Source: an uncultured Gemmatimonadales bacterium (GTDB lineage: Bacteria; Gemmatimonadota; Gemmatimonadetes; Gemmatimonadales; GWC2-71-9). Taken from it: a DNA stretch of 64,000 nucleotides. The stretch covers positions 256,001 through 320,000 of the forward strand of contig CAWGED010000005.1 of assembly GCA_963821525.1 (NCBI GenBank). The letters run 5' to 3'. Below are positions 9,382 through 28,935 of the stretch, piece after piece. Made by a program: the position numbers and the translations under genes. The first letter of the stretch is position 1; every line of letters begins with the position of its first letter. Under the pieces are notes generated by a model. That model was given only the letters and a program-made list of their open reading frames with translations. It was not told the origin of the DNA and ran no database searches.

Positions 9382-11859
9382 ATGACACTCGCTAACGACA
9401 TCCGGGTCGCGCTCCGCTCGCTGCGCCGCTCGCCCGGTTTCACGCTCGCAGCCGTAACCACGCTGGCACTCGGTATCGGTGCCAACACCGCGATCTTCAG
9501 CGTAATAGACGGAGTCCTGCTTCGTCCCACGCCGTTTTCGCACATCGATCGACTGGCGATGGTGTGGGAAACCGATCGCAAGAGCGGCACGACGAGGGAA
9601 CCGGCCTCGGTTCCTGACTTCCAGGATTTCCAGCAGCAGAGCAGGCGGTTCAGCGTGCTGGCGGCTTTCGCCGCGCAGGAGGTGAGCCTCACCCCTGAGG
9701 ATGCGGAGCCCTCGCGCCTCGCGGCGCTGGCGGTGAGCCATGAATACCTCGGCCTCACCGGGATCACTCCGATCATCGGTCGCGGGTTCAGCGCCGAGGA
9801 CGATCGTCCCGGCGGACCTCAGGTGGTGTTGATTGGCGAGGCGCTGTGGCAGCAGCTGTATTCCCGGGATCCCCAGGTTGTGGGCCGAACGATCCGGATC
9901 GACGACGCCCAGCAGACCATCATCGGTGTAGTTCCTTCCACCGCTGACTTCGGTACACTCCAGGTTCTGAGCGCGGCGGACTACGGGAAGGGATTCGCGG
10001 CCCGCGGGGGGCAGGTGCGGGTTGACCTCTGGACGCCGCTGCGCCCGGACCCCGAGAGTTATCCGCGCCAAACTCATCCGATCTTTGTCGTGGGGCGCCT
10101 TGCCGGAACGGAGGGCATCGGAGCCGCGCAACAAGAGGTAGGAGGAATCGCGGCCGACCTCGAGAAAAAGTATCCGGAGAACGACGCTCGCGGAGTTTTC
10201 ATCGAGCCACTGGCCCAGGTGGTATTTGGCCCGGTTCGGCCTGCGCTTTTCGTGCTCATGGGCGCCGTCGCTCTCGTGCTTCTCGTCGCCTGCGCCAACG
10301 TGGCCAGCCTGCTGCTGGCCCGAGGGGCGGAACGACTCCGTGAGGTCACGGTACGGACCGCGCTGGGCGCCACGACCCGTCACCTCGTTCGGCAGTTCCT
10401 GGTTGAAAGCCTTCTCCTCACGGGGTGTGGAGCACTGCTGGGTGTGCTCCTCGCGCAAGAAGGACTCGATCTCCTGCTCGCGCTCGCACCGGGAGATATC
10501 CCGCGTGTCGGCACGGTCGGCATCGACGGGAGGGTTCTCGCAGTCACCCTGGGGGTAACGATCTTCATTGCAGTCCTGTTCAGTCTGTTCCCCACTGTGC
10601 AAGCCACCCGGGTCAACCTGCAATCGGCTCTCCAAGGAGAGGCAGGCCGGGCCGCCTCCGCTGGACGTCAGCATCGCCGGTTCCGGGCGGGATTGGTCAT
10701 CGGCGAATTGGCTCTTGCGGTCATGCTGATGGCAGGAGCTGGCGTGCTGATTCGCAGCCTATGGCGCCTGCGCCAGGTTGACCCGGGGTTCAGCTCCGCG
10801 GGCATCCTCAAGGCGGAGTTCCAGCTGCCGCCCAGTCGGTATCCCACCGATTACTCCAAGTGGCCCCGCTGGCCCGCAACCCACGGGTTCAACAACGAAC
10901 TCCAGCGTCGAGTCGCGGCATTGCCGGGCGTCGAAGCCGTGACGATAGCCGGCAATCATCCGCTCGATGCGGGGTTCACCAGTTCCATCAGTGTGGTAGG
11001 ACGAGAGGCCGAAGCCCACGAGTGGCCCGAGCCGACGATCCGCCAGGTCGATGCCGGGTACTTCAAGACTTTGCGGGTTCCACTACTGGCGGGTCGGAGC
11101 ATTGCCCAGACGGACGATGCCGAAGGCGCACCGGTCATAGTGATTAATGAATCCGCCCAGCGTCGCTTCTTCGGATCCCTGCCTCCCCTGGGTCAGCAGA
11201 TCTCCTTGTGGGGAGCGAGGCGAACCGTCATCGGTGTCGTGGGGAACGAACGCTCCCATGGACTGGCCGAAGACTCACCACCCAGCGTCTATCTCCCGCG
11301 GGCGCAAGCGCCCACGAGTGGAGGGAGTCTGCTCGTGCGGACAACGGCCGGCGATCCTGCGGCGCTCGCCCCAGCGATTCGCCGGGTTGTGGCCGACCTC
11401 GATCCCTCGCTGCCCCTCTTCGGGGTAGAGCCCCTCACTCGTACGCTCTCCAATTCGATGGGGCAGCGCCGCTTCACAATGATCGTCCTTGGCGCATTCG
11501 CCGCGGTCGCACTGTTGCTGGCGGTCATCGGTGTGCACGGGGTACTCACCTACACGGTGACGCAACGAACCCGGGAAATCGGAATTCGGATGGCTCTGGG
11601 CGCCGATCGATCGCGGGTGAGGAGCCTAATCCTCAGTCAGGGAGGCACGCTGGTGGCGGGAGGGCTGATCCTTGGGCTGATCGGCGCATTCGCCATCACT
11701 CGACTACTGAGAGCCCTGCTTTACGGAGTGAGCCCGACCGATCCGGGCACGTTCCTGGGTGTTGCGGTCCTCCTGGCGGTGGTCGCTCTGATCGCGAGCT
11801 ATCTCCCGGCGGCCCGCGCGGCGCGGGTGGATCCTGCGGTGTCACTCAGGAGCGAGTGA
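9382..11859 (+). CDS. ABC permease 2 (ADOP family)
   Basis: Same family motifs ([42 protein letters not shown]); 825 aa. Confidence 0.95.
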   Translation: MTLANDIRVALRSLRRSPGFTLAAVTTLALGIGANTAIFSVIDGVLLRPTPFSHIDRLAMVWETDRKSGTTREPASVPDFQDFQQQSRRFSVLAAFAAQEVSLTPEDAEPSRLAALAVSHEYLGLTGITPIIGRGFSAEDDRPGGPQVVLIGEALWQQLYSRDPQVVGRTIRIDDAQQTIIGVVPSTADFGTLQVLSAADYGKGFAARGGQVRVDLWTPLRPDPESYPRQTHPIFVVGRLAGTEGIGAAQQEVGGIAADLEKKYPENDARGVFIEPLAQVVFGPVRPALFVLMGAVALVLLVACANVASLLLARGAERLREVTVRTALGATTRHLVRQFLVESLLLTGCGALLGVLLAQEGLDLLLALAPGDIPRVGTVGIDGRVLAVTLGVTIFIAVLFSLFPTVQATRVNLQSALQGEAGRAASAGRQHRRFRAGLVIGELALAVMLMAGAGVLIRSLWRLRQVDPGFSSAGILKAEFQLPPSRYPTDYSKWPRWPATHGFNNELQRRVAALPGVEAVTIAGNHPLDAGFTSSISVVGREAEAHEWPEPTIRQVDAGYFKTLRVPLLAGRSIAQTDDAEGAPVIVINESAQRRFFGSLPPLGQQISLWGARRTVIGVVGNERSHGLAEDSPPSVYLPRAQAPTSGGSLLVRTTAGDPAALAPAIRRVVADLDPSLPLFGVEPLTRTLSNSMGQRRFTMIVLGAFAAVALLLAVIGVHGVLTYTVTQRTREIGIRMALGADRSRVRSLILSQGGTLVAGGLILGLIGAFAITRLLRALLYGVSPTDPGTFLGVAVLLAVVALIASYLPAARAARVDPAVSLRSE

Positions 11860-11869
11860 AGACATTGCT

Positions 11870-11895
11870 GAGTACCTGGTACCGAGTACCGAGTA
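11870..11895 (+). repeat. Heptamer array (AGTACCG/GGTACCG/AGTACCT)x3+
   Basis: gagtacctggtaccgagtaccgagta directly after the permease 2 stop. Confidence 0.8.
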
Positions 11896-11937
11896 ATGGT
11901 GCCCTGAGATGTTGACAGCTCACAGCCGGATTGTCGG

Positions 11938-14400
11938 ATGACGCTCGCCAACGACATCAAATACGCGTTCCGTTCCCTGCGCCGGACGCCCGGTTTCACC
12001 ACCGCGGTCGTGCTCACGCTTGCGCTCGGTATCGGGGCAAACACGGCCGTCTTCAGCATCGCCAACGGCATCCTGTGGCGTCCTGTTCCGGGTAAGGAGC
12101 CGGACCGGCTGATGGTGATCGTCGCCAAGAACCGGGCTCAGGGCGGCTTCTTCGACTACTCCTACGCCGACTACGAAGACTTTCGGCGCGACGCGTCGGC
12201 ATTCGAGGACGTGGCGGCGTACTACCCGGCGCCGGTCAGCCTCAACAGCCAGGACCGCAACGACCGGATCTGGGCCGAGCTGGTGAGCCCGAACTACTTC
12301 GGAGTGCTGGGCGTCGAGCCGGTGGAGGGGCGAGGTTTTCTCGCCGAGGACGGACCGAATTCGGGTGCTGCACCTGTCGCTGTTGTGAGCGACCGGTTCA
12401 AGCGCCGCCTCGCGCCTGATGGAACCTCGGTACTTGGCCAGACAGTCCGTCTGAACGGGCAGGCCTTCACGATCGTCGGCGTGGCACCCCGCGAGTTCCG
12501 CGGCGTGTACCACGCTCTGTTCGGCCCGGACGTCTGGCTGCCGGTATCGAGCTTCGACGTGGTTTCACGCGGGGTACCGGGTTCATTGCTGGCTCGCGGG
12601 AGCAACTCTTTCCGTCTCATGGGGCGCCTGCGTCCCGGCGTCACCTACGACCAAGGCGGCTCCGCTGTCGCCGCGATCGGTCGCCGCCTCGAACGCGATT
12701 ACCCGGTTACCAATGCCGGGTTCGATGCCGTCGCCATGCCGGAGCTCAAGGCCCGACCGGAGCCGGATGCCGCTGGAGGCTCGGCCCTGGCCGCGCGCGC
12801 CTTTCTCGTCGTGGTGGGACTGGTCCTGCTGATTGCCTGCGCCAACGTAGCCAATCTGCTTCTTGCGCGTGCCGCATCGCGCCGGAAGGAAATCGCCCTC
12901 CGCCTCGCATTGGGCGCGGGACGTCTCCAACTGCTCCGACAGCTGCTGATCGAGAGCACCGTCCTCGGCCTCCTGGGCGGCGCACTGGGTATGGGTCTCG
13001 CCATCTGGGCGACGGCCGCACTCGGCAACGGATTCCACGCGCCGAGCGACATTCCCTTCCAGGTGGACTTCAGCCCTGACCGTCGGGTCCTCTGGTTCAC
13101 GCTGGCCATCTCACTCCTGACCAGCCTGGTATTCGGACTGGTGCCGGCATTGCAAGCGGCTCGCCCCGAGGTCGTCGGCGCGCTCAAGAATGAACCAGCC
13201 GGGCGTCACGGGTCGAACCGATCTCTCCTGCGCGGCGGGCTGGTGATCACTCAGGTCGCACTCTCCTGCGTCCTGCTGATCGGAACCGGTCTCATGCTCG
13301 AGACGCTGGGGCAGATGAAGCGGCTCGACCCAGGGTTCGATACCAGGAACGGGCTCCTGGTTTCGGTCTCGCCCGCGCTCCTGGGATACGACCAGCGTCA
13401 GGGGGAGAGCTTCTATCGCCGGATGCTGGAAGAGGTTCGCCAGACACCCGGAGTGCAGGGCGCGACGCTGGCTCAGTACGTCCCACTCGAATTCAGTGCC
13501 AGCGGAGGGGGACTCTTCGTCGCGGGACGAGAGGGCGACCAGAAGAGTCAGGGCGGCGATCCGACCTATTGGAGCGTCGTGGAGCCTGGCTATCTCGCCT
13601 TGATGGGGACCCGGCTTCTCGACGGTCGCGACTTCAGCCTGCAGGACGATTCCACCGCACCACGTGTCGCGATCGTCAATCAGGCGCTGGCCCAGCGCTA
13701 CTGGCCCGGCGCCTCGGCGATTGGAAAGACGATCCGGCTCAATGCGGTGAGTGGCCCGCCAATCGAGATCATCGGTGTCGCCGCCGACGGCAAGTACCGG
13801 GGACTCGAGGAGCGCCAGCTTCCGTATCTCTACCTGCCTCTAAGCCAGAACTACACCGGGAACGCGACACTCGTCGTTCGAAGCTCCGGTGATCCCCTGG
13901 CACTGCTGCCGGCGGTACGGGGAGCCATTCATCGTGCCGATCCGGACATGCCGGCCTTCGATACCAAGACGATGCAGCAACTGATCGAGGGCAGGGCACT
14001 ACTGGGCCCGCGCTTCGCTGCGGGGCTGGCTGGCGTGTTTGGGCTGATCGCGCTGGGCCTCGCAATGGTCGGCCTATACGGCCTCATCTCCTACTCGGTC
14101 TCACGGCGGACTCGGGAGATGGGGATCCGCATCGCGCTGGGAGCGCCGCTTCGATCGGTTCGCGGCATGGTAGTGGGTGACGGATTTCGGGTGGCCGGTA
14201 TCGGAGTCGTCCTGGGAACGGTCGTGGCGGCCGCGCTCACTCACATGCTACGGAGCCTCTTCTTCGGCATGAATCCGGGCGATACCCGGCTGCTGGTCTC
14301 CGTGCCATTGGTTCTTATCGCGATCGCGGTGCTGGCCAGCTATCTGCCCGCGCGCCGGGCGACCAAGGTTGATCCGATGGTGGCGCTTCGGGCTGAGTAG
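11938..14400 (+). CDS. ABC permease 3 (ADOP family)
   Basis: Family motifs; ends [17 protein letters not shown]; 820 aa. Confidence 0.95.
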   Translation: MTLANDIKYAFRSLRRTPGFTTAVVLTLALGIGANTAVFSIANGILWRPVPGKEPDRLMVIVAKNRAQGGFFDYSYADYEDFRRDASAFEDVAAYYPAPVSLNSQDRNDRIWAELVSPNYFGVLGVEPVEGRGFLAEDGPNSGAAPVAVVSDRFKRRLAPDGTSVLGQTVRLNGQAFTIVGVAPREFRGVYHALFGPDVWLPVSSFDVVSRGVPGSLLARGSNSFRLMGRLRPGVTYDQGGSAVAAIGRRLERDYPVTNAGFDAVAMPELKARPEPDAAGGSALAARAFLVVVGLVLLIACANVANLLLARAASRRKEIALRLALGAGRLQLLRQLLIESTVLGLLGGALGMGLAIWATAALGNGFHAPSDIPFQVDFSPDRRVLWFTLAISLLTSLVFGLVPALQAARPEVVGALKNEPAGRHGSNRSLLRGGLVITQVALSCVLLIGTGLMLETLGQMKRLDPGFDTRNGLLVSVSPALLGYDQRQGESFYRRMLEEVRQTPGVQGATLAQYVPLEFSASGGGLFVAGREGDQKSQGGDPTYWSVVEPGYLALMGTRLLDGRDFSLQDDSTAPRVAIVNQALAQRYWPGASAIGKTIRLNAVSGPPIEIIGVAADGKYRGLEERQLPYLYLPLSQNYTGNATLVVRSSGDPLALLPAVRGAIHRADPDMPAFDTKTMQQLIEGRALLGPRFAAGLAGVFGLIALGLAMVGLYGLISYSVSRRTREMGIRIALGAPLRSVRGMVVGDGFRVAGIGVVLGTVVAAALTHMLRSLFFGMNPGDTRLLVSVPLVLIAIAVLASYLPARRATKVDPMVALRAE

Positions 14401-14464
14401 TACCGAGTACCTGGTACCGGGGACGCGTGAACCAGCTAACAGCTAACAGCTGACGGCTGACGGC
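14399..14464 (+). repeat. Two heptamer arrays: (AGTACCG)x3 and graded (CAGCTAA)2(CAGCTGA)(CGGCTGA)
   Basis: agtaccgagtacctggtaccg 14399-14419; cagctaacagctaacagctgacggctgacggc 14433-14464. Confidence 0.8.
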
Positions 14465-14486
14465 GCTTCAACTAACGAGGAACCCG

Positions 14487-16913
14487 ATGTTCATGACGGA
14501 CCTGAAACACGCCGCTCGGTCGCTGCGTCGCTCGCCCGGATTCGTGATCGCCGCGGTGGCGACGCTGGCACTCGGGATCGGCGCCAACAGCGCGATTTTC
14601 AGCGTGGTCAACGCCGTCCTGATGCGGCCGTTGCCATATCCCGATCCCGATCGGCTGGTCCTGGTCTGGGAGCGCAATGTTCCGCGACACCAGGAAACCA
14701 ACGTGGTGAATCCGCAGAACTATCTCGACTGGCAGGATCGCGCGAAGAGTTTCTCGGGACTCGCCCTGCTGTCCTGGTCCCAGATCACCTTCACCGGCGA
14801 TTCTCCGGAGATTATCTCGGGCCGCGCGGTCACCCCAAACTTCTTCGATGTAATCGGAATGCCGCTGGCGATGGGCCGCGGATTCACCCAGGCCGAGGGG
14901 TTGCCGGGTAGCCCGTCGGTGATCGTGCTGAGCGATGGTCTCTGGCGACGCCGGTTCGGCGCCGATCCCGGAATCGTCGGCCGTTCGGTTCCGGTCGCCG
15001 GGGGAAGTGCACTGGTCATCGGCGTCGCGCCGGCCGCGCTGGGACCGATGCCGTGGGGCCGGGAACAGTATTGGGAACCCTTCAGGATCGATCCGAGCGA
15101 TCGGATACGCGGTGGCCGCTACGCCCTGGTGGTTGGTCGCCTGGCGCCGGGCGTCAGCCGGGAGCGCGCTCAAGCGGAGATGAGCGGGATCGCCGCCTCG
15201 CTGGAGAAGGAGTATCCCGACTTCGATACCGGGTGGAGCACGAATGTGGTCCAGCTCAAGGACCAGGTCGTTGGCTCCTCTCGCCGGGCGCTGCTGCTCC
15301 TCCTCGGTGCAGTCTCGATGGTCCTGCTGATCGCCTGCGCCAACGTGGGCAACCTGATGCTGAGCCGAGCCACCGGCCGGCAACGCGAGGTGGCCATTCG
15401 CACCGCGCTCGGCGCTTCGCGCTGGCGGCTGATGCGTCAGGCGTTGCTCGAGAGCGTGCTGCTCGCCGCGATCGGCGGCGCCGTGGGACTGTTACTCGCC
15501 GTTTGGGCGGTTGACCTCCTGGTGAGCGCCGGCCCGCGGGACATCCCGCGGCTCAGCGAGATCGGTGTGGACCCCCGGGTGTTCGCCGTTACCGCCGGGA
15601 TCTCGCTTCTGGTGGGAATCCTGTTCGGGCTGCCTGCTGCCCTGGGCGACGTGCATGCCGACCTCGCCTCCGGACTCAAGGGCGAGAGCCCGCGGAGCAC
15701 GGCGACTGTTTCGGCCACCCGTTTCCGGGGCGCGCTCGTCGTGGCCCAGATGGCGCTCGCACTGATTCTCCTCGCCGGCGCCGGTCTCCTGGTTCGCTCG
15801 CTGCAACAACTCGCTTCGGTTGATCCCGGATTTGATCCGGAGAATGTCCTCACCGTCTCCGTGGACCTTCCCGAGGCGACCTACGGAGAGGGAGCCCGGC
15901 AGACGGCGTTCCTCGACCAGCTTCGCGACCGGGTGAGGTCGCTTCCCGGTGTAACCGACGTCGGAGCGGTGAACATGCTGCCGCTCACGTCGGCGGGTTC
16001 TTCGACGACGATCCATCTCATGGGACGACCCGAACCTGCTCAGGGGCAGGAGCCGGTCGCCGACATTCGCTACGCCGATCCGGGCTACTTCACGACCATG
16101 CGCGTTCCGCTCCGGCGGGGCCGCAGCTCCAACACCGCCGACGTGCCGAAGGCGCCCCCGGTCGTGCTGATCAACGAGACCATGGCGCGGCAATTCTGGC
16201 CTAATGAGGACCCCATCGGCCGACGGCTCAAGATCGATATGTGGAAGCCGGACGATGTGGTCGAAATCATCGGCGTGGTTGGGGATCTGCATCCCAACAC
16301 GCTCGATGACGACATCCGCCCGATGATCTACTACCCGCTTTCTCAGGAACCCTCCCGTTCGCTGACTCTCGTCATTCGGCACGCGAGCGGAGTGAACGGA
16401 CTGGCGGGGCAGGTGAGGGCCGCGGTGCGCGAGATCGATCGGGGCGTGCCGCTTACCGACGTCGCCACGATGAATGCCCGGCTCAACCAGTCGATGTCGG
16501 ATCGCCGCTACCCGATGCTGCTCCTGGCCGGCTTCGCCGCGCTGGCGGTGGTCCTCGCGTCGGTCGGGATCTACGGCGTTCTTGCGTACACAGTCGGCCA
16601 GCGCACCCGAGAGATCGGGGTGCGGATGGCTCTGGGTGCCCGACGTGGTGACGTGTTGCGCATGGTCCTCGGTGGTGGCATCCGGCTGACGCTCATCGGT
16701 GTGGTGTTGGGAGCGGTGGGTGCCGCGATCGCCGGGCGAGCACTGGGGAAATTGCTTTACGGCATCACGCCGACCGATCCGGTGACCTTCGCGGCGGTGG
16801 CGCTGTTGCTCACGGCCATCGCCGCGGTCGCGTGCTATCTCCCCGCTCGCCGAGCGACCCGGGTGGACCCTATGGTGGCGTTGAGGGCGGAGTGGGAAAG
16901 GAGAAAGGACTGA
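14487..16913 (+). CDS. ABC permease 4 (ADOP family), short C-terminal extension into repeat
   Basis: Family motifs; ends VALRAE-WERRKD with the stop inside AGGACTGA. Confidence 0.95.
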   Translation: MFMTDLKHAARSLRRSPGFVIAAVATLALGIGANSAIFSVVNAVLMRPLPYPDPDRLVLVWERNVPRHQETNVVNPQNYLDWQDRAKSFSGLALLSWSQITFTGDSPEIISGRAVTPNFFDVIGMPLAMGRGFTQAEGLPGSPSVIVLSDGLWRRRFGADPGIVGRSVPVAGGSALVIGVAPAALGPMPWGREQYWEPFRIDPSDRIRGGRYALVVGRLAPGVSRERAQAEMSGIAASLEKEYPDFDTGWSTNVVQLKDQVVGSSRRALLLLLGAVSMVLLIACANVGNLMLSRATGRQREVAIRTALGASRWRLMRQALLESVLLAAIGGAVGLLLAVWAVDLLVSAGPRDIPRLSEIGVDPRVFAVTAGISLLVGILFGLPAALGDVHADLASGLKGESPRSTATVSATRFRGALVVAQMALALILLAGAGLLVRSLQQLASVDPGFDPENVLTVSVDLPEATYGEGARQTAFLDQLRDRVRSLPGVTDVGAVNMLPLTSAGSSTTIHLMGRPEPAQGQEPVADIRYADPGYFTTMRVPLRRGRSSNTADVPKAPPVVLINETMARQFWPNEDPIGRRLKIDMWKPDDVVEIIGVVGDLHPNTLDDDIRPMIYYPLSQEPSRSLTLVIRHASGVNGLAGQVRAAVREIDRGVPLTDVATMNARLNQSMSDRRYPMLLLAGFAALAVVLASVGIYGVLAYTVGQRTREIGVRMALGARRGDVLRMVLGGGIRLTLIGVVLGAVGAAIAGRALGKLLYGITPTDPVTFAAVALLLTAIAAVACYLPARRATRVDPMVALRAEWERRKD

Positions 16914-16988
16914 GGACTGGGACTGAGATAGTTCCGAGTTCCGAGTTCCGAGCTACGAGCATCAAACTCAGTCCTCAGTCCTCAGTCC
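16906..16988. repeat. Nested heptamer arrays (AGGACTG)x3-(AGTTCCG)x3-(CTCAGTC)x3
   Basis: Outer arms 16906-16927 and 16967-16988 are complementary; a different array 16930-16957 lies in the loop. Confidence 0.88.
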
Positions 16989-17012
16989 ACATCACTTTGA
17001 TTGGACCTTCCA

Positions 17013-19547
17013 ATGACGCTTCTGACTGACCTCAAGTACGCCCTTCGTGGGCTGCGCAACAATCCGGGCTTCGCGGCTGTGGCGATCCTGACGCTGGCGC
17101 TGGGGATCGGCGCCAACACCGCGATCTTCAGCGTAGTCAATGCGGTGCTACTGCGCCCGCTGCCCTACTCCGAGCCGGAGAGGTTGGTCCAGGTCTACTC
17201 GGCCGGATTTCAGGAAGGCCGGTTTTCGATGTCGTATCCCGACATCGAACAGCTGCGCGCCATGCCGCAGGTCTTCGGCGAAGTCGCCGGCTACGACACC
17301 CACGAATTCAATTTCACCGGTTCCGGGGATCCTCGCGAAATCGAGGGCGCCTACGCGTCGTCCGAGCTATTTCCGGTCCTGGGCATAAGACCGGAGCTGG
17401 GCCGCACCTTTGGTTCGGAAGATGAGCAGGCTCCGTACGTAGTGATCAGTCATCGCCTCTGGGCCTCGGTGTACGGCCGCGACCCGACGGTGCTCGGGCG
17501 GAGCATCCAACTCGATGGCGCTCCGTTTACCGTGATCGGTGTCATGCCGGCCACCTTCCGGTTCCCGAGCGAGAACATTGACCTCTGGGCCCCGCTGGGC
17601 GGGGCGTTCGCCGCCAGTCCCGAGGCACGGACCGACCGGAACCTCCACCTCTTCAACACCGTCGCACGGCTGCAGCCGGGAGTCACGAAGGAGCGGGTTC
17701 AAGCCGATCTCGCAACCCTGGCCCAGCGGCTCCAAGCACAGGAAGAAACGGCCAATCAGTCTCAGCCTCAACGGCGAGAGATGCGGATCACCGCACGGGG
17801 CGCAGCACCGGCAGGTGGTGCCGGGCCGCGACCCGGTCCCAGCGTGGCGCGGGCAAGAGACGGCGCGGGCCTCGAGATCGCCTTCGATGCGGTGCCGCTG
17901 ACCGACGAAGTCGTAGGTGACATCCGGCCGACGCTGTATGTGCTGTTCGGCACCGTGGCCATGGTGCTGCTCATCGCCTGCGCCAACGCCGCGAACTTGC
18001 TCGTGGCCCGGGCCAATTCCCGGCGCCGGGAGATCGTGATTCGGCAGGCGCTGGGGGCCGATCGCGGCCGCATCGTGCAGCAGATTCTCACCGAGAGCGT
18101 GCTGCTCGCGCTCGCGGCCGGAGTGGTCGGCGTCCTGATGAGTTACTGGGGTCTCGACCTGCTTCTCGCGACCTGGCCCGATTCACTCCCCAGGGTCCAG
18201 GACGTCACGATTGATCGCTCGGTGTTGGCATTCACCTTCCTGGTATCACTCGCGACTGGCATTGGATTCGGCCTGGTGCCTGCTCTTCGTGCCTTCCATC
18301 CGGCCATTGAAGAGGCTCTGCGCGAAGACTCCGGCGGCTTGAGCGGCGGACGCAGCCGGCAGCGGACTCAGCGAGTCATGGTCGCCGCCGAGCTGGCGGT
18401 GGCGCTGGTGCTACTGGTGTCGGCCGGCCTCCTGGTACGCAGCTTCACGCGATTGATGGAGGTGGATCCGGGGTACGACACGCACGACGTGCTCGCGGCC
18501 CGGGTCCGGCTCACTCCCTCCCGCTATCCCGATCGCGCCTCGCACGAGACCTTCTTTCGCAGTCTGAGCGACGATCTCGCCGCTCGTCCCGGGGTGGATG
18601 GTGTCACGATCTCTCGCACCATGCCGCTCACCGGGTCCATGATGATGCTCGCCATCAATCCCCAGCGGATCCGGCCCAACGATCCCGATCCGATTCTCCC
18701 GATCGCGATGCGCCTCGTAGGCTTCGACTATTTCAACACCCTGCGGGTCCCGATTCTCAAGGGACGCCCCTTCGAAGCGACCGACCGGGACGGCGCCACT
18801 CCAGTCGTAGTGATCAACACCCGGCTGGCCAAGCGGCTCTGGCCCGACGAGGATCCGGTAGGGAAGCAGATTCCCATCGGGATGCGGCGGGAAACGGAAA
18901 GGGAAGCGACGGTGGTCGGCGTGATCGGTGACGTACATTATGCCGGTCTCGACGAAGAGACCGGCCCCGAACTGTATCTTCCATTGGCGCAGGCGCCCGA
19001 TTGGGGCGAGCAGATGTGGATCGCCATCCGAGCCGAACGGAATCCGCTGCTCCTCGCGGGCACGGTCCGGGAGGCGGTGCGCCGAGCCGATCCGCAGCAG
19101 CCGGTGGCGGAACTCTTCAGTTTGGATCAGGCGATCGGCCAATCCACTGCCGCTCGCCGGTTCAATATGATGCTGATCTCGCTCTTTGCCGGGCTGGCCG
19201 CTGTGCTCTCGGTGATCGGGGTGTACGGATTGACCTCATATGCCGTCAGCCAGCGCACCAGGGAGCTGGGGATTCGCATTGCCCTCGGCGCCAAGCAGGG
19301 AGATGTCGTGCTACTGGTGATTCGCGAAGGTCTGCGGCTCGCACTGATCGGTGCCGCGATCGGCTTGCCGATAGCATTCGCCGCCTCGAAAGCCATCGGC
19401 TCGATGCTGTTCGAGGTCACGACCAGCGACGCCCTTACCTATGGTGGAACCGCGGCGCTCCTCATCTCGGCGGCGGTCCTGGCGACCTGGGTACCGGCCC
19501 GGCGGGCGGCGCGGGTGGATCCGGTGGTGGCGTTGAAGAGTGAATAA
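17013..19547 (+). CDS. ABC permease 5 (ADOP family)
   Basis: MTLLTDLKYALRGLRNNPGF..., ends PARRAARVDPVVALKSE; start moved to ATG 17013 by analogy with paralogs. Confidence 0.95.
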   Translation: MTLLTDLKYALRGLRNNPGFAAVAILTLALGIGANTAIFSVVNAVLLRPLPYSEPERLVQVYSAGFQEGRFSMSYPDIEQLRAMPQVFGEVAGYDTHEFNFTGSGDPREIEGAYASSELFPVLGIRPELGRTFGSEDEQAPYVVISHRLWASVYGRDPTVLGRSIQLDGAPFTVIGVMPATFRFPSENIDLWAPLGGAFAASPEARTDRNLHLFNTVARLQPGVTKERVQADLATLAQRLQAQEETANQSQPQRREMRITARGAAPAGGAGPRPGPSVARARDGAGLEIAFDAVPLTDEVVGDIRPTLYVLFGTVAMVLLIACANAANLLVARANSRRREIVIRQALGADRGRIVQQILTESVLLALAAGVVGVLMSYWGLDLLLATWPDSLPRVQDVTIDRSVLAFTFLVSLATGIGFGLVPALRAFHPAIEEALREDSGGLSGGRSRQRTQRVMVAAELAVALVLLVSAGLLVRSFTRLMEVDPGYDTHDVLAARVRLTPSRYPDRASHETFFRSLSDDLAARPGVDGVTISRTMPLTGSMMMLAINPQRIRPNDPDPILPIAMRLVGFDYFNTLRVPILKGRPFEATDRDGATPVVVINTRLAKRLWPDEDPVGKQIPIGMRRETEREATVVGVIGDVHYAGLDEETGPELYLPLAQAPDWGEQMWIAIRAERNPLLLAGTVREAVRRADPQQPVAELFSLDQAIGQSTAARRFNMMLISLFAGLAAVLSVIGVYGLTSYAVSQRTRELGIRIALGAKQGDVVLLVIREGLRLALIGAAIGLPIAFAASKAIGSMLFEVTTSDALTYGGTAALLISAAVLATWVPARRAARVDPVVALKSE

Positions 19548-19551
19548 AAAC

Positions 19552-19627
19552 AGTACCTAGTACCTAGTACCGAGTACGCGAGGATCGGGGCGCCAGGCTC
19601 GGTACTCGATACTAGGTACTGGGTACT
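19552..19627. repeat. Inverted pair of heptamer arrays (AGTACCT/G)x4 ... (AGGTACT)x4
   Basis: agtacctagtacctagtaccgagtacgcgag / ctcggtactcgatactaggtactgggtact; ~30-bp stem, ~15-nt loop. Confidence 0.88.
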
Positions 19628-19654
19628 TAATCTCCATCTAACTTGAGAGTACGC

Positions 19655-20353
19655 GTGATCCGACTAACCGACCTCGAGAAGTCCTTCGACACCAAGCCGT
19701 CGCCGACCTACGTTCTGCGCCGGATCAATCTGACGATCCAGCCCGGCGAGTTCGTCACCATCATGGGGCCCTCGGGTGCGGGAAAGTCGACGCTGCTCGC
19801 GATTCTTGGGATGCTCGACGGCGAGTACCGGGGGCAATACGAATTCAAGGGACAGCAGGTCCAACCCCTCAAGCCAAAGCAGCGGGCGGAGCTGGCCAAG
19901 CAGTCGGTGGGATTCGTCTTCCAGCAGTATCATTTGCTCGACGATCTCACGGTGGCGGAGAATCTCGATATGCCGCTTTCCTATCGGGACCTCCGGAGCT
20001 CGGAGCGTGCGGCGCTGGTGGCCGATACGCTGGATCGATTTCACATCGTCGGAAAAAAGGACCTCTATCCCCGCCAGCTCTCCGGCGGCCAGCAACAACT
20101 GATCGCGGTGGCCCGGGCAATCATCGCCAAGCCGGCACTGTTGCTTGCCGACGAGCCCACCGGAAATCTCCATTCCGCCCAGGGCCGGGAGATCATGGAA
20201 CTGTTCTGCAAGCTCAACGCGGCGGGTACCACGATTATTCAGGTGACCCACTCTCTGGAGAACGCGCAGTACGGCAGCCGGATCGTGGAGTTGAAAGACG
20301 GCTGGATGGTTGGGGATGCAGCTGTGAGCCGTCAGCCGTCAGCCGTCAGCTGA
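19655..20353 (+). CDS. ABC transporter ATP-binding protein 2
   Basis: [38 protein letters not shown]; last residues (SRQPSAVS) are encoded by the AGCCGTC array. Confidence 0.93.
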
Positions 20354-20934
20354 GAGCCGTCAGCCGTCAGCCGTCAGCCGTCAAGCCTAAGACAGGCCGG
20401 CTATCTGCTGTCGCCAATCAAGATCTTCGGTTGTTCGAGTTTAAGGGTCGCTGAAGTGTCGAAATGAAGGTGTTGAGCATTCGCTGAATCTCGACAGCAA
20501 GTGCGGTTAGCGTCGTGTAATCGTCGTGGGACAGAAGCTCGATGTCTTTGGCCATCAGTAAGAAGTATTCAGTCTCCGCAGCGGAGCGCCTTGCGATGAT
20601 GAGATATCGGGCGGTTTCGCGGTCGCTTGAGCACGCGGTTCCCTCAACGATGTTGGCAGGAACCGAGGAAGCGCAGCGCAGTAGTTGGGCCGCAATGGTG
20701 TAGCGGGCCCAATTGGGGAATGCCTTGGTGACGCGGCATACTCCGATATTGAGCTCGTGGGCTTTCACCCAGACCTTGAGTTTGGAAAAATGTTGCACGG
20801 CGATCTCTCATGTTCCCTCAACACTAGTGTGACCAGGCCTTGGTAGTGCATCATTTGCCGACGGCGCTATGCTAGAAAACGCGGTTTCTCCTGCTTATGT
20901 CTGTTCTGACGGCTGACGGCTGACGGCTGACGGC
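20327..20934. mobile_element. Putative 608-bp cassette: four-helix-bundle gene between inverted (AGCCGTC)n/(GACGGCT)n arrays
   Basis: 7 perfect AGCCGTC plus 1 variant at 20327-20383; 4 perfect CTGACGG at 20906-20934; enclosed gene is antisense to the operon and lower in GC; mobility is inferred, not shown. Confidence 0.55.
20418..20798 (-). CDS. Four helix bundle protein (23S rRNA intervening-sequence protein / Avd-like family)
   Basis: FSKLKVWVKAHEL, FPxxxRYxxxxQLLRCASSVPANIVEG, ARYLIIARRSAAETEYFLLMAKDIELL match the family pattern; 126 aa; ~54% GC by hand count. Confidence 0.9.
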   Translation of the reverse strand: MQHFSKLKVWVKAHELNIGVCRVTKAFPNWARYTIAAQLLRCASSVPANIVEGTACSSDRETARYLIIARRSAAETEYFLLMAKDIELLSHDDYTTLTALAVEIQRMLNTFISTLQRPLNSNNRRS

Positions 20935-20951
20935 GACTTCAACCCCTGGCC

Positions 20952-22301
20952 ATGTCTTCAATCCTCATCGCGGACGACCAACCCGACATCCTTCAGGCTC
21001 TCCGGTTCTTACTAAAGGCCGAAGGCTTTGCCGTCGATACGGTCAGCTCGCCAGGAGGCGTGCTGTCGGCGATCGAACGGAAGGATTACGACGTCGTCCT
21101 GATGGACCTCAACTACACTCGGGACACCACGTCAGGCCGTGAAGGATTCGATCTCCTCAGCCGGATCCGGTTGCTCGACGCGACACTCCCGGTCGTGGTG
21201 ATGACCGCCTACAGCAGCGTCGAGGGCGCAGTCGAGGCGATGCGGGGCGGCGCCCGAGATTATGTCGAGAAGCCGTGGGACAATGCTCGGCTGGTTGCGA
21301 CGCTCAAGACTCAGGTCGAGCTGGGCAAGGCGTTGCGCAAGAGCCTCCGGCTGGAGAGCGAGAACCAGAGCCTCCGCCGCGAAGGCGTACCCGACATGGT
21401 CGCCGAGTCGCCCGCGATGCGCGCGGTGATGCGGTTGATGGAGCGGGTGGGGCCGTCGGAAGCGAACGCCGTCATCCTGGGCGAGCACGGCACAGGCAAG
21501 GAGGTGGCGGCGCGCTGGCTGCACGCCGCCTCGGCGCGGGCCCAGAGACCGATGATCACGGTGAATGTGGGCGGCCTCTCCGAGGGTGTTTTCGAGAGCG
21601 AGCTCTTCGGTCACCTGAAGGGAGCTTTCACCGATGCCAAGGCCGACCGCATCGGGCGCTTCGAGCTGGCGGATGGTGGGACGCTGCTCCTGGACGAGAT
21701 CGCCAACATCACTCTCGGCCAGCAGGCCAAGCTGCTGCGCGTCCTGCAAATCGGGGAATTGGAACGGGTCGGCTCCTCCAAGACCCGCAAGGTCGACGTT
21801 CGAGTCCTCTCGGCGACCAACGCCGATCTCCGGGCAGAAGTTGCCGCCGGGCGTTTCCGGGAAGATCTGCTCTACCGCCTCAACACCATCGAGATCCGGC
21901 TTCCTCCGCTCCGGGATCGGCGGGAAGACATCCCGCTTCTCGCGAGCACCTTCCTCCGCCGTCACGCGACGCGCTACCGGAAGCCGGTCACCGGGTTCAA
22001 CCCGGCAGCGATGCAGGCCCTGCTGAGTTACATCTGGCCCGGCAACGTCCGCGAGCTCGACCATACTATTGAAAGGGCGGTCCTTCTTACGGATCAGGCC
22101 GAAATCGATCCCGCCGACCTGAGTCTCATGCCACCTTCCGACGGCGCCGCCCAGTTGGAGGCGATGACACTCGAGGATGTGGAGCGGTTGCTGGTGCAGA
22201 AAGCGCTGGCTCGCTCCGGCGGCAGTGTGTCGGATGCGGCGAAAGCGCTGGGCCTCAGTCGAAGTGCACTGTATCGGCGGCTTGAGCGGTTTGGGATGTA
22301 G
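20952..22301 (+). CDS. Sigma54-dependent response regulator (NtrC/AtoC family)
   Basis: Receiver (IADD, LMDLN), AAA+ [45 protein letters not shown], Fis HTH. Confidence 0.96.
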
Positions 22302-22303
22302 TA

Positions 22304-22438
22304 CAGCCGTCAGCGCAGCTCAGCCGTCAGCAGGGCACCTCAAGTTGGTTAGATCCCTCGCCGCTACGATCCCCGGGATGAGGTACTCTGAAATGCTCTC
22401 GCTGATGGCTGACGGCTGACGGCTGATGCTGACGGCTG
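22304..22438. repeat. Empty inverted AGCCGTC/GACGGCT pair with a REP half-site in the loop
   Basis: cagccgtcagcgcagctcagccgtcagc 22304-22331; gctgatggctgacggctgacggctgatgctgacggctg 22401-22438. Confidence 0.82.
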
Positions 22439-22465
22439 CCGTCTCACCCCCACATATTCCCGCCA

Positions 22466-23783
22466 ATGCGCTCCACATCCCACCCAAAACGAGTCCTGCT
22501 GCTGGCACTGATGGCGACGCTGCCCGCCACGGTGTTCGCGCTGGTCTTCGTGTGGGTGGGAGACTACTCCTCGAAGGTCCAATGGACCGTCACGATGGTG
22601 GTGGCGCTCGGGCTTCTGATCGGCGCGACCGCAGTGTACGACCGTGTCGTCCTTCCACTCCAGACCGTTTCCAATCTCCTCGCCGCTCTGCGCGAGGGCG
22701 ACTACTCCCTGCGCGCCCGGGGCGCCACGCCGGATGATCCACTGGGACTGGTTTATCTCGAGGCGAACGCGCTGCGCGACACGCTCCGCGAACAGCGACT
22801 CGGCGCTCTCGAAGCAACCGCCCTGCTTCGCACGGTGATGGCGGAGATCGACGTCGCGGTCCTGAGCTTCGATGAGAATGGACGGCTGCGGCTGGTGAAT
22901 CGGGCCGGGGAACGGTTTCTCGGGCAGCCGGCCGAGCGCGCCCTCGGGCTCGACGCGGAGACCTTGGGACTCGCGGGCAGCTTCGAGGGAGAGAGCCCTC
23001 GGGTGATCGAACGGGGCAGCACGCCCGCCGTCCGCTGGGAGTTGCGTCGCACCAGCTTTCGGGAGGGAGGAAAACCGCACCAGTTGCTCGTGTCTGGCGG
23101 ATGTGAGCCGCACACTCCAGGTCGAAGAGAGGCAGGCATGGCAGCGGCTGGTCCGCGTCCTGAGCCACGAGATCAACAATTCTCTGGCGCCGATTCGGTC
23201 CCTCGCCGGCAGCCTGCGCTCGGCGCTGGATCGCCGGGCCACTCCCAGCGAGACGGATGGCGCCGATCTGCGTCACGGACTCGACATCATCGGTCAACGC
23301 GCGGAAGCGTTGGCGCGCTTCATGGGCGCCTACGCCCGACTCGCCCGATTGCCCAAACCGGTCCTGGCGAAGATGGCGGTCGAGCCCTGGGTCCAGCGCG
23401 TGGTGGGACTGGTCCAGGATACCCGAGTCCGCATTGCCGGCGGACCCGAAGTGAGCATCGCGGCCGACGCCGATCAGCTGGATCAGTTGCTGATCAACCT
23501 GGTGCGCAACGCGATTGAAGCGATGGGCGGAGGCCCTGGCGAAGTCACGGTAAGCTGGAAAAAGGCAGGGCAGGGGCTGGAGCTATTCGTGGAAGATGAT
23601 GGCCCCGGCCTGAGTGAGACCGGCAACCTCTTCGTTCCTTTCTATACCACGAAGCCCGGCGGTTCCGGGATCGGGCTGGTCCTGAGCCGGCAAATCGCCG
23701 AGGGCCACCGTGGGGCCCTTCATTTAGAGAACAGGCGAGGCCGGGCCGGGTGCAGGGCCAAGGTCTGGCTTCCGGTCCTCTGA
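22466..23783 (+). CDS. Sensor histidine kinase (NtrY-like; TM, PAS, HisKA, HATPase; frameshift ~23095)
   Basis: Two TM segments, PAS-like region, H-box RVLSHEINNSLAPI, NLVRNAIEA, EDDGPGL, FVPFYTTKPGGSGIGL. Confidence 0.92.
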
Positions 23784-23900
23784 TCCCGTCTCGCTGGAAC
23801 GTATCCTGCCTCCTGTAGCTTCCGGAATCGGGCGAGCCGAGCTGAAGCACAAAGCGTTTGACAGGCTGACTCCGGCCCGGTAGGTTGATGTAACTCCCTG

Positions 23901-26900
23901 TTGGGCAATCGTTTCCCGTCGTCAGGACCATTCGTGGCGAGCTTCGGTAAGCCGAGCCGTCGGGGTAGTCTTGTGAGGGTTTCCCAGGTTCTCCTGGGGG
24001 TTTTTGTGTTGACCACCTGTGGTCAGGACTGCAGCAACCGGTCCGGGCCGCCAGGTGAACGGGTACATCGATGCGACCGCCCTGCTTCGGGCCGGTGGGC
24101 AAGTCCCGATCCCGGTTACCGAAGTCTTCGTAGAGTTACGCCGCACCAGCGATTCCTCCGTCGCATTCAGCCGGCTCCTCACCGGCAGCGAGATCGATCA
24201 GGCCGCGACGACTCTCCAAGTACGAATCCGGGTCGAGCTGCATCAGTCACCGGAAGATTTCTTTCTCTGCTGCAGGCGCGGGGCGGCGGTGTCACGTACT
24301 ACGAGGTGCGCAGCACTGTCACCGCGACTTCCGGCGGCCGACCACGACCCAGCCGTATACACCGCAATACGTCGGCCCCGGCGCGAGCGGGGTGGACAGC
24401 GTCGTACTCGCGATTTCCAATCCGTACACTCCGGCCGGTGGTACCACAGTCGCGACCGCATCGGTCTACGCCAACAATGCCGTGGTGCCCGGTGTCCCCG
24501 TCGGCTTCATCTCTAGCGATCCCACCAAAGTTCCGACGCCGGTCAACAACGGGATCAGCCAAGCGGTGGTCCTCGCTCCGCCGACCGGGGACGACAGCGT
24601 CGTGATCACCGCAGTGACGCCGGTTCTGCCGGCGGTCTCCGACACGGCGACCTTCCACTACGTCCCGGTCGCGGCCCGCATCATCGCGGTTTCGGGTGAC
24701 GCGCAATCGGGTCTCATCGGAACCGCCTTCGGGCTGCCGCTCATCGTGGAGGTTCAGGACGCTGGTGGAGCTCCGTATCGCGGCGGGTACCCGGTCGCGT
24801 TTGGCGTGGCGAGCGGGCCGACCGGCACGTCGGTGGCGCCCACCACGGTCAACACGGATCTGACTGGTCGAGCGCAGACCATACTCACGGCAGGGAGTGC
24901 TGTCGGGACCCTCTCGGTGACTGCGACTGCAACGGGACTGACCGGCTCGCCATTGACCTTCAATGGCACGGTGACAACCGGCGGTCCCGGGGTCCCGACC
25001 ACCGTCGCGGTCGCCGGGGGCAACAACCAGAGCGACAGCGTGAACCACGTCCTGCGCGAACCCACTGGTCGTTTTGGTGAGCGACCAAGTTCGGCAATCC
25101 CGTTTCGGGCGTCACCGTTTCATGGACCGCGAGCGACGGGAGTCTCTCGGCACCGACCTCCAACACCAATGCCAGCGGCCAAGCCTCGATCAACTGGACG
25201 CTGGGCTCCGCCCAAGCCAATCCGACCGTTACCGCGACCGTATCGGGCCTCACACCAGTGGTGTTCCAGGCGACGACGCTCTTCCCAGGGCCCCAGGTTC
25301 TGATCTCGCAGGCGGGCGTTCCCGGCGTAGGGATCGGGCTTACCGCGACGATAGACGTTGCTTTGACGGGCCCGGCCGGCGCGGGCGGAGTCTCGGTGGC
25401 GCTGTCGAGTTCGGCGACGGGAATCTTCACCGTCGCTCCGGCGACTCTGAACATCCCGCAGGGTGCCACGGCGGGAACGGCCACGATCACCGGGGTATCG
25501 AGCGGTATCGCGACGCTCACCGGAACCGCGACCGGATACATCACCGGGTCGCTGTCGGTTAACGTGCAGAACCGGAACATCAGCATCCCCGTCACGCTGA
25601 ACGTTCCCTACGGTCAGAGCGGCGTGTCGCTGCCGATTCAGATTCCCGCACCCGCGCCAGCCGGCGGGGTGACCTTCACGGTGACCTCGAGCGCGCCAAC
25701 CCTGGTTGGAGTATCGACGCCCACGGTGACTATCGCCGCGGGAGGCCAGACGGCGAACGCGCTGCTGAATGGTCTGCTGCCGGGTCCATCCACGGTCACC
25801 GTCGCCAACGCTGCGTATGTGACGGCGACCTCTACCGTGACCACCGCGGCGGCGCTCGATCTCCAGCAGACCTCGGCCACCCTCAACTCGAGTTTCGGCG
25901 TCCAGGTCGATATCAACTTCACCAGCAATAGCCAGGGCATCGCGGCGCCGGCGCCGGGCGTTCCGGTTGTGCGGTGATCACCGATGCGACCTGCCTCAAG
26001 GCTGTCACCAGTCCGATCACGATTCCGACCGGTATGGTATCGGTCCCGATGGCGCTGGTGTACGGCGGGACGGCCAGCTTGCCGTGCACGACGCAGCTCA
26101 AGGTGACCGCGGCCAACATCCAGCCGACAGCATCAGCGTCACGGTCCAGCCACAGCCTGCCATTACGCTCAATGCGGCGACGGTGGGCAGCGGACTTCAA
26201 GTGGCGGTATCGGGTCTGCTGGGCGCTACGAATCATGGCGGCGCCACGGTGACGCTGAGCAGCGGAAACAGCAACTTGCTTCTCTCCCGCAACGCCACGA
26301 CGCCGGGCTCGGCCTCCATAACGGTGACCGTCCCGGTATTCCAGCAGAGCTTCAGCTACTACATCCAGGCCAAGGAGGGGCTGACTGGGACGACGCCGAT
26401 TACGGTTACCGCGCGGGCGCCGGGCTTTATCGACGGCACCATCAACCATGACCTGGTGCAAGGTGCGATCGACCTGATCGGGGTTCCGACAAGCACGACC
26501 ACGTTGTCGTCGAGTTCCGCCATCTATGCGCGGACGGGTATTCCGAATTCCCAGACGTCACCTACTGGGCTGGTTCAGCTCCAAGCGATCCGTGCCGGGG
26601 CGCCGGGTGCTCTAATCGTCACATTCCAGGATGACGATCCCAACGGCGCGTCGACCCTGATCGTGAAGGGCCCGGTCACCCAGGATACACTCAACGCGCA
26701 GGTTCCGGTGGGGGGCACCAACACGCCGACGGATACGACTTCGGGCGGTGTCGCGATTCTGCCCCAGGGTTCGGGCACCAGCACCATCTCCGCAATAGCG
26801 GCGGGCTTCCTCCAGGTACCCACCGCGGTGGCGTCACCGGTCACTATCGCCCAGCCCGGTATCACGCTGAGCAGCGGGAATGTCGGCAGCGGGCTTCAGG

Positions 26901-28935
26901 TCAGCGCCTCGGGCAACCTCGCCGCTCCGAACCACGGTGGTGTCGGCGTTACCCTGACCAGCGGGAATGCGGCCCTGCTGTTCTCGCCCAACGCTACGAC
27001 ACCGGGTACCAGCAGCATCACGGTCAATGTACCGAACGGCCAGACCTTCTTCAGCTACTACGTGCAGGGCCTCGAGGGCCAAACCGGGACCAGGCCGGTC
27101 ACGCTCACTGCCAGCGCTCCGGGCTTTGCCGACGGTACCACGACGTACAACCTGATGCAGGGCGCCATCGACCTGATCGGGGTGCCAGCCAATACCACTA
27201 CGTTGTCGCCGATTGCCAGCATCTACGCTCGGACTGGTGTCCCGAATTCGACCTCCTCCCCCACGGGCCTGACGCAGCTGCAGGATGTGAGAGCCGGAGC
27301 TCCAGGCCCGGTGACGGTGGTCTTCCAAGACAACGATCCCAATGGCGCCACGACGCTCATCGTGAAGGGTCCGACTACCCAGGACACGCTCACCGCACAG
27401 GTCCCCGTCCTCGGTTCCAACACGCCGACCGACACGACGTCGGGCGGAGTAGCACTCCTGCCGCAGGCTGCGGGCACCAGTACCATTTCGGCGGTCGCGA
27501 CCGGCTTCCTACAGGTGACATCTCGGCGGGCCTGGGGTAACCGTCGCTCAGCCGACCTCAGCGTCAGCGCGGTCACCGTGGGCAGCGGGCTTCAGATCAA
27601 CACTTTCGGCAACCTGGCCGCTCCGGCGCCGACCGCGAACTTCCCGGTGACGTTGGTGAGCGGCAACCCCAACCTGCTGCTGGCGCCCAACGCCACCACC
27701 GTCGGCACGGGCTCGATCACCTTGACCCTGGCGCAGGGCGCCCAGTCCTTCTCGTTCTACGTGCAGGGCAAGGAAGGACTGACCGGGACCACGTCGGTCA
27801 CGGTGACCGGCAGTGCCGCCGGCTTCGCCGACGGGACGGCGAACATGAGCCTGGTGCAGGGCGCGCTTGATCTGATCGGGGTTCCGGCGAATACCACGAC
27901 GCTCTCGCCGATCTCGAACATCTACGCCCGAACCGGCATTCCGAACGTGCAGATCTCGCCGACAGCCCTGACCCAGTTGCAGAATGTGCGCTTCGGCGCT
28001 CCGGGGGCGCTGACGGTCAATTTCCTGAGCACGAGCGCTGCCGTGGCGGATCTGCTCAAGGCCGGCCCGTCTGCCTCGGGAAGCCAGACGGCCACGATTC
28101 CGATCGGAAGTTCCAATACTCCGACCGACACCACCTCGGGCGGGGTCGCTATCCGGCCTCTGCTCTCCGGCACCACGACGATCAGGGCCTCGATCACCGG
28201 CTTCCTTCAGGTCACCAGCGCTGCCGGCTCCCCGGTCTCGATCGCGCAGCCCGGGATCACGGTGAACGGGACAACCGTGGGGAGCGGCCTCCAGATCAAT
28301 GCCTTCGGCTCGCTCGGCGCCCCGAACCATGGCGGTGTGACGGTCACGCTGGTAAGCAGCAACGGAGCGCTCCTGCTCGCGCCCGATGCGAATACGCCGG
28401 GCACCAGCTCCATCAACATCTTCGTCCCGAACGGCACCCAGTCCTTCGGGTTCTACGAGCAGGGCCTGGAGGGACAGACCGACACCGTGACGGCGGCGAT
28501 TACCGCTACCGCCTCCGGCTTCACGACCGGCAACGGCACGGCGGACGTGGTACCTGCGGCTTCGATGTGATCGGGCTGCCGGCTTCGCCGACCGCGGGAG
28601 GGCCGGATGTCGCCTTCTACGTCCGAACCGGCATTGCCAACCAGACCTACACCGCCCTGACCCAGCTGCAGAACGTCCGGGATCGGGGCGCCCGCAGCCG
28701 ATCAACGTCACGGTAGCGACCGACGCCGTGGCCATCGGCCCGCTGGTGACGAGTAGCGGGACTGCCGCCAGTGTCCCGCTGCAGATTCCCGTGCTGAGCT
28801 CCAACACGCCGACCAGTGTTGCCACTGGTGGCGTGGCCTTCCGTCCCGCCGCTGGCCGGTGCCGTGACGATCACCACGACCATTCCAGGGCTGATCGGCA
28901 CGACCTCCGCGATCACAATCATCACGGTCCAGTAA
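23901..28935 (+). CDS. Large Thr/Gly/Ala/Val-rich surface protein with Ig-like (Big_1-type) domains and four ~233-aa tandem repeats (many frameshifts)
   Basis: Signal-like LLGVFVLTTC; VSGDAQSG/AGGNNQS...TDLTGRAQT Ig-like units; VGSGLQ repeats start at 26183, 26882, 27578 and 28277; ends ITIITVQ-TAA 28935; reconstructed by eye from several frames. Confidence 0.78.

Follow-up and report, generated by a model that had tools for sequence, protein, structure and literature searches.

A four-helix-bundle gene enclosed by inverted heptamer arrays: a candidate transposase-free selfish element in Gemmatimonadales

The window analysed here is a stretch of 64,000 nucleotides from an uncultured Gemmatimonadales bacterium (GenBank assembly GCA_963821525.1, contig CAWGED010000005.1, positions 256,001 to 320,000). 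Its genome, called G000 below, is represented by an assembly of 4.33 Mb which is 81% complete. A 126-aa gene of the four-helix-bundle (4HB) type lies antisense between an ABC ATPase and a sigma54 response regulator, in the place given by the original prediction, and is enclosed by two heptamer arrays, or arms, of inverted orientation (Table 1). In the left arm, copies of AGCCGTC begin at 20327, 20334 and 20341, the variant AGCTGAG comes next and four further copies occupy 20355-20382; the ATPase TGA (20351-20353) falls inside this arm. The predicted composition of both arms, seven perfect units with one variant on the left and four units ending 17 nt ahead of the regulator ATG on the right, was recovered. 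The longest perfect duplex between them is also the expected 28 bp, formed by 20356-20383 with 20907-20934, and the 651-nt stretch folded with z = -4.7 (versus 20 shuffles). The GC content was 0.541 for the 4HB gene, 0.610 for the ATPase, 0.647 for the regulator and 0.653 for the permease. The anticipated difference of about 54% against about 65% in the neighbours is therefore correct for the gene, the regulator and the permease and incorrect for the ATPase.

Table 1. Coordinates of the cassette, its flanking genes and gene-less arrays in the window
Feature	Position	Strand	Remark
Host ABC ATPase, flank	19643..20353	+	
Left arm: one imperfect unit, (AGCCGTC)3, AGCTGAG, (AGCCGTC)4	20320..20383	+	Covers ATPase C-terminal codons and stop
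Short spacer, gene stop to left arm	20384..20417	-	
4HB gene, TIGR02436/PF05635, S23p family, 126 aa	20418..20798	-	ORF list, GTG start, profiles
Leader between right arm and gene start, 107 nt	20799..20905	-	
Right arm: (CTGACGG)4, reverse complement of left unit	20906..20934	+	17 nt upstream of regulator ATG at 20952
Host sigma54 response regulator, flank	20952..22301	+	
Gene-less pair with the window unit, next junction	22305..22438	.	AGCCGTC at 22305 and 22322; complement at 22401-22438
Gene-less complement-type arrays CAGCTAA, GCTGACG, ahead of permease start	14433..14464	.	Units match C11 and window cassettes

Several other features of the window and the genome were observed. Five tandem large ORFs of 808-848 aa occupy 6897-19547, and the one tested is an ADOP-family permease. 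Every junction of this ORF block carries 7-mer arrays with differing units (6844, 9342, 11870, 14433, 16906-16988, 19552-19627). The gene after the regulator (22466-23783), a sensor kinase by appearance, is split into two overlapping ORFs (22466-23518, 23103-23783), possibly by an assembly indel. Contigs C9, C11, C13 and C15-C18 of G000 consist for the most part of alleles of other contigs (84-98% identity); the assembly thus mixes close relatives, which helps the comparison of junction alleles and cautions against copy counts. A 5.35-kb block (23784-29136) with a large repetitive surface-protein-like frame, broken into several ORFs (24392-28570), is missing from the C11 allele. A long palindromic element is situated within heptamer arms at 38770-38935 and 22335-22390, with related copies elsewhere; the window copy breaks off at 22340, and the C11 allele has a fuller one. 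Contig C16 contains a long poly-T run followed by poly-A near 8900-9016, probably an assembly artefact. Genes of the GxxExxY type (G000:C5:948726, C4:251116, C8:120644) possess their own inverted arms with a period of about 9 nt, and a gene-less pair of this arm type is present at 46513-46620 of the window. The GxxExxY genes and their arms appear to form a second, parallel system of gene plus repeat.

The window protein scored 103.4 bits with TIGR02436 (cut-off 24) and 106 bits with PF05635 (cut-off 33.8). PF05635 was its sole match in a Pfam search, and the protein is hence without a Y1 (HUH) transposase domain. A local Y1 transposase partner was also considered and rejected, as the four Y1 genes of G000 own other, palindromic repeats. 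The AlphaFold model consists of four helices (pLDDT 95), and Foldseek positioned it close to 2GSC (TM 0.82) and 2RLD (0.81) and more distantly to Avd (TM 0.74-0.78). Both solved structures contain five chains, and an S23p-family protein is stated to be a pentamer (PMC4990558). By analogy with these relatives, the window protein may form a homopentameric ring. Residues Q38, R41, S45, N49, E52, G53, S72 and E75 are near-invariant (94-99% of 392 sequences). Among 116 longer homologues (8000 candidates scored) no nuclease, reverse transcriptase (RT) or transposase domain recurs, and their additional Pfam accessions are scattered.

The leader is presumed to carry a promoter and ribosome site which move together with the cassette. 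DNA alignments revealed it to be common to duplicated cassettes, and the distance from arm to first profile position of the gene has a median of 118 nt (87 loci). A promoter and terminator scan returned 0 sites, and the leader has no sigma70 consensus.

The original prediction regarded the stem as a means to loop out and process mRNA. In the form of this explanation considered here, the cassette is an intervening sequence (IVS) whose 28-bp stem is cut by a double-strand RNase, so that the RNA would not show the insertion. Excision of an IVS proceeds without religation, and cutting would therefore split the operon mRNA; the position of the ATPase stop in the arm is a further point against it. 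The perfect duplex and the presence of relatives in 23S rRNA agree with this explanation, as does the Coxiella IVS, described with a 28-bp stem, heptamer repeats and RNase III cleavage (PMC4990558). RNase III itself, however, was matched by TIGR02191 in 0/1 (G000) and by PF14622 in 1/61 order genomes (G000, 81% complete, and 60 others). The sole match comes from a fragmented assembly, on one of its late-numbered contigs, and the model detects 8/14 controls. Judged from these profiles the order may lack RNase III, and such an absence could favour long intergenic hairpins. Four RNA contig runs (sharing 0.05-0.09 of words) showed no cassette-skipping joint over 19000-22600, at near-zero coverage, which is too thin to weigh against excision. 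The scarcity of RNase III makes excision from mRNA a weak reading and a very improbable one, and processing was not upheld as the purpose of the stem.

Among 402 loci, the 4HB gene was found inside 23S rRNA at two (L359:1437-1900 and L385:545-995 (-)). Both are IVSs near helix 45 with a 4HB ORF and complementary arms of 7-nt period. The window copy lies between protein genes, and the 23S gene of G000 is elsewhere. The occurrence of an IVS-type cassette outside rRNA, as proposed originally, is supported by these two relatives, which sit in true 23S genes and bear the same kind of heptamer arms. Heptameric repeats at the 5' end of the Coxiella IVS were noted by Warrier et al. 2016 (PMC4990558). 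Together with the arms of L359 and L385, they suggest that the rRNA IVS should be regarded as one of the places where the element lands.

Comparison of the ATPase-regulator junction in related genomes revealed that the cassette is not fixed there, in line with the expected mobility. The ATPase was immediately upstream in 12 of 30 other regulator copies; these 12 junctions hold a 4HB gene in 8 cases and none in 4, of which one (L013) has a gene-less hairpin only. At least nine cassette types occupy the junction, including those of L005, L006, L028, L042, L071 and L075, and two are reversed. In genomes of the same genus, identity is 95-99% for the flanking proteins and just 38-43% among three cassettes, whose arms are different; the ATPase tail past the DGW(M/L)VGD motif also varies with the resident cassette. 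The cassette at a given junction is replaced faster than the flanking genes diverge. The window protein is nearest (50%) to same-junction proteins of two other genera with similar units, so the window cassette may be an old resident. For the same-genus junction proteins a single clade was not rejected by the AU test (p = 0.089), and the tree thus does not prove independent insertion at this junction.

Some details of these junctions were noted by eye or in passing. L004 and L015, of the same genus and cassette type, differ in unit (TAGGCCT-like versus TAGCCGT) in both arms by eye, and the L015 gene looks frameshifted by eye. Another small gene recurs directly upstream of the regulator in L006, L010, L012, L014, L016 and L019; in L006 it is bracketed by the unit of the adjoining cassette.

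Movement was also observed within single genomes. In G122, G096 and G198, cassette pairs with 91-96% identical proteins occur at unrelated sites, and their DNA is highly similar from arm to arm, with both limits of the homology inside the arms and unrelated sequence outside. No target-site duplication was visible by eye in the alignments of the three duplicated pairs. Among pairs of at least 85% identity, neither flank was common in 4/12, three of which are these duplicated pairs, and among those of at least 70% identity both flanks were common in 34/61, indicating vertical descent. The cassette very probably moves as a unit with the arms as its ends. The dN/dS ratio was 0.06-0.15 in 7/7 pairs, duplicated copies included, and 0.07 for the window gene versus the G003 allele; the 4HB protein is kept functional by purifying selection. 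The duplicated cassettes L309 and L318 of G198 have an extra direct-orientation 8-mer array after the stop, ahead of the inverted arm.

The arms are a general feature of the family. G000 possesses 13 TIGR02436 matches, each locus with its own unit. Matched inverted 7- or 8-mer arms were detected automatically at 11 of these 13 loci, and irregular complementary arms were recognised by eye at the other two. Two of the 13 loci sit on contigs 91-95% identical to other contigs (alleles), which probably stem from a co-binned relative. Over the whole order, matched inverted arms were present at 109/144 distinct family genes with full flanks (5/149 were dropped for short flanks), compared with 8/144 for direct orientation, 20/600 for cross-paired flanks and 1/600 for random G000 sites. 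The cross-phylum set gave 54/76 (6/82 rows dropped, two loci counted twice), phage contigs gave 14/18 and the held-out set gave 101/150, ranging by group from 11/28 to 47/57. Bacteria outside the order, pooled, had matched inverted 7/8-mer arms at 155/226. All these sets consist of the best-scoring family members, so arm rates may be lower for divergent ones. The suggested enrichment of the family for flanking inverted 7-mer arrays is clear from the order, cross-phylum and held-out sets.

The units follow a common pattern. Of 145 7-mer units, 134 contain a purine followed by G on the 5' arm and 59 on the 3' arm; shuffling gave 115 on average. The G of AG deviates from the consensus of its own array in 8/849 copies, whereas the other 15 contexts deviate in 4-13%. 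Both arms point inward, and each is built of tandem copies of a unit R-G-n-n-n-n-n, 7 nt long or in some cases 8 nt. Up to 13 paralogues with different units exist in one genome.

Heptamer arrays are also abundant without the gene. G000 has 194 perfect-run arrays of 7-mers and 63 of 8-mers, and each other period between 4 and 12 gave at most 10. In 29% of its 517 gene-less 7-mer arrays the unit is identical to one of the nine units of the resident cassettes, while matches to nine cassette units drawn from relatives averaged 1.6% and never exceeded 9.3% (300 draws). The claim that gene-less pairs share units with resident cassettes is supported by this difference; 71% of the gene-less arrays have no exact match to a resident unit in this genome, which is 81% complete. 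The window unit is the commonest (48 arrays), and the pair at the junction after the regulator is a candidate non-autonomous copy or scar. Around 200 inverted pairs in G000 have a spacer below 150 nt. Nested arm pairs, seen by eye at some junctions, were considered as a record of serial insertion and rejected, with 1 nested case in 130 exact-unit pairs. In 121 related genomes, the number of 4HB genes was associated with the number of arrays (rho 0.47; two degenerate patterns, own arms counted, an association only). At least 10 array matches were found in 1/19 genomes without a 4HB match and 42/102 with one, own arms again counted. Related genomes with a fetched cassette of matching unit reached at least 10 matches in 8/8 cases versus 7/40 without it, and in 15/16 versus 9/32.

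The short gene-less pairs are strongly polar, with 128 inward-pointing versus 11. Extension of both 3' ends at a break would produce such polarity, which speaks for a retro-element, in which an Avd-like ring recruits an RT in trans and the unit is written on both 3' ends in the manner of telomerase. The fold match to Avd also speaks for it, but the Avd model NF033474 gave 20.4 bits on the window protein, below its cut-off of 80. RVT_1 was matched in 20/121 order genomes and in none of G000 and the array-rich G001, G020, G091 and G011. This mechanism appears very improbable.

The RG strand of gene-less arrays reads after a stop codon in 216 cases versus 84. Such fixed polarity directly after stops is what a domesticated regulator would exhibit. 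TRAP is the ring which serves as model for this explanation: a TRAP-like ring on transcript heptamers would tune termination, stability or translation, and a passive gene would hop by recombination. The hairpins would come from another host process, and the gene would enter empty hairpins with the same unit. Purifying selection on the gene agrees with a regulatory role, and homology ending inside arrays fits recombination as well. The same polarity, with most such repeats transcribed, was reported by Rehm 2015 (PMC4692102). Against this, alignment of allelic contigs (91-96% identical) placed 12/18 breaks at arrays, with a background of 11.5%, and the whole hairpin was often exchanged for another unit. 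Such wholesale replacement is hard to square with stable regulation, as are up to 13 paralogues with different units per genome. A domesticated regulator is rather unlikely on this balance.

The relation between protein and unit was analysed by covariation. Unit distance dropped with protein identity (nearest neighbour 2.29, null 3.30), a trend for which inheritance alone suffices. After identity was regressed out, columns 105, 59 and 109 exceeded the family-wise threshold (106 representatives), with 105 at rank 1/104. In the held-out set of 64 representatives, only 105 of five pre-named columns replicated (z -4.0, threshold -3.73, rank 2/104); D59, N109, A63 and I67 did not replicate there, and no column passed at 50% clustering. 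Column 105 gave z -6.2 in a composition-binned permutation and ranked 2-3 in three disjoint subsets, below threshold in two. No column exceeded the family-wise threshold in the own order alone. In 70 disjoint close pairs, which reuse loci of the earlier covariation sets, the unit change was larger with a change of T54 (family-wise significant) or Q105 (p = 0.002). A helix-3 face (59, 63, 67) as specificity surface was dropped after it failed in the held-out set, and a simple rule linking Gly105 to G in the third unit position was not replicated (p = 0.66). The tree-based pair test of a residue-base rule supported one pair only. The co-variation of protein and unit foreseen originally is supported; at the level of residues it is partial, and the sequence comparison is suggestive, not proof, for residues 54 and 105. 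From the same kind of data, the protein probably recognises its own unit. Each of the five Avd protomers takes part in binding an RNA stem-loop (10.1101/2023.10.23.563531), a structural precedent for a ring reading its unit.

The failure of most covarying columns to replicate would be expected if the gene was only a passenger inside host-made microsatellite hairpins at junctions and the covariation was shared ancestry. Many close pairs are syntenic, and heptamer arrays have been described in many bacteria with no link drawn to a 4HB gene in the main accounts (PMC4692102, PMC4679880), both of which agree with a passenger. But inverted pairs in G000 with a spacer of 400-600 nt hold the 4HB gene in 9/12 rows (8 loci), and one more is a frameshifted allele. 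The arms duplicate together with the cassettes and are present inside 23S rRNA too, and the close-pair contrast still picks residues 54 and 105. A mere passenger is thus quite improbable.

The preferred reading is that the cassette is a selfish element of the RAYT/REPIN kind which has no transposase and whose protein recognises the element's own repeat; the chance of this reading being right or wrong is considered about equal. The element would consist of arm, leader, 4HB gene and inverted arm, and would represent a widespread family of small selfish insertions which land at gene junctions and in helix 45 of 23S rRNA. A five-membered ring would bind the unit of its own arms, about one per subunit, in nucleic acid that is single-stranded or folded into a hairpin. 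The near-invariant G would be read by the ring, and residues near 54-59 and 105 would set the specificity. More weakly, binding might cause arm pairs to be copied into new junctions, either together with the gene or alone, and the roughly 200 short gene-less hairpins would then stand to the gene as REPINs do to RAYT, as its scars or non-autonomous progeny. Whether the protein drives the spread of the arrays is held to be evenly poised. The strand-transfer or synthesis step would probably be performed by host enzymes, since no transposase or reverse transcriptase accompanies the element. A further extension, in which S23p/4HB genes are the masters of a transposase-free selfish class present across bacteria and each ring, reading its own heptamer with a specificity that is reprogrammable near residues 54 and 105, catalyses or directs the writing of inverted arrays at junctions, is put forward as a tentative possibility, somewhat doubtful at present.

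These results join the S23p/4HB family, with solved pentamers and no assigned role, to the origin of over-represented intergenic heptamer repeats. They supply a defined candidate ligand (the own arm unit), candidate specificity residues and natural protein/unit swaps at one junction, so that binding and mobility can be tested directly. Should the ring recognise a 7-nt code that can change, it would also be a new kind of programmable nucleic-acid binder. If the reading of a master gene and its copies is true, it would explain the excess of 7-nt repeats in bacteria, with rRNA IVSs as one landing site.

The protein family, the rRNA IVSs and the heptamer arrays are each already known. Among the literature matches listed (in part the best 30-40 of 47-1,587, with few subscription papers), a class linking the 4HB gene with arms was not described beyond one Coxiella IVS. 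The present analysis tested the arm-bounded duplication within genomes, the turnover at the junction, the unit matches between gene-less arrays and cassettes, how rarely RNase III occurs in the order, and the covariation of residues with the unit, which is partial. The ORF-bearing 23S rRNA IVSs of Coxiella and Leptospira share the protein family, complementary ends and a 28-bp stem (PMC4990558). In contrast to them, the window copy is placed between protein genes in antisense orientation to the operon, and RNase III was rarely found in its lineage (1/61); the Coxiella ORF is reported as decaying (PMC4990558), whereas the window family has multiple paralogues per genome under purifying selection. 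The Xanthomonas and Nostoc heptamers (PMC4692102) and the Beggiatoaceae TAACTGA repeats (PMC4679880) are likewise junction arrays with the G-rich strand after stops, often in inverted pairs. In these papers a single unit is considered for each genome, and roles in G-quadruplex formation or translation are proposed. Neither main text contains the term 'helix bundle', and row 15 of supplement S2 (PMC4692102) lists an array overlapping the start of XCC0516, which is the 4HB protein of PDB 2GSC. The DGR protein Avd (PDB 4DWL, 8UB7) is a 4HB pentamer which binds an RNA stem-loop with flipped bases between protomers (10.1101/2023.10.23.563531); the window protein differs in having 13-14% identity to it, a score under the Avd cut-off, and neither an RT nor a template repeat in its vicinity or elsewhere in the genome. 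Classical IS and MITE elements are resembled in the copies at unrelated sites and in the homology ending at terminal inverted repeats. In RAYT/REPIN systems (PMC3116915; 10.1101/2022.05.22.493013), a master gene is situated in inverted cognate repeats, with gene-less pairs and several gene-repeat sets per genome. The window system differs from them in being without an HUH/Y1 transposase and in having tandem heptamers instead of REP palindromes, and it has the same layout of a master gene in inverted cognate repeats together with gene-less inverted pairs of the same repeat.
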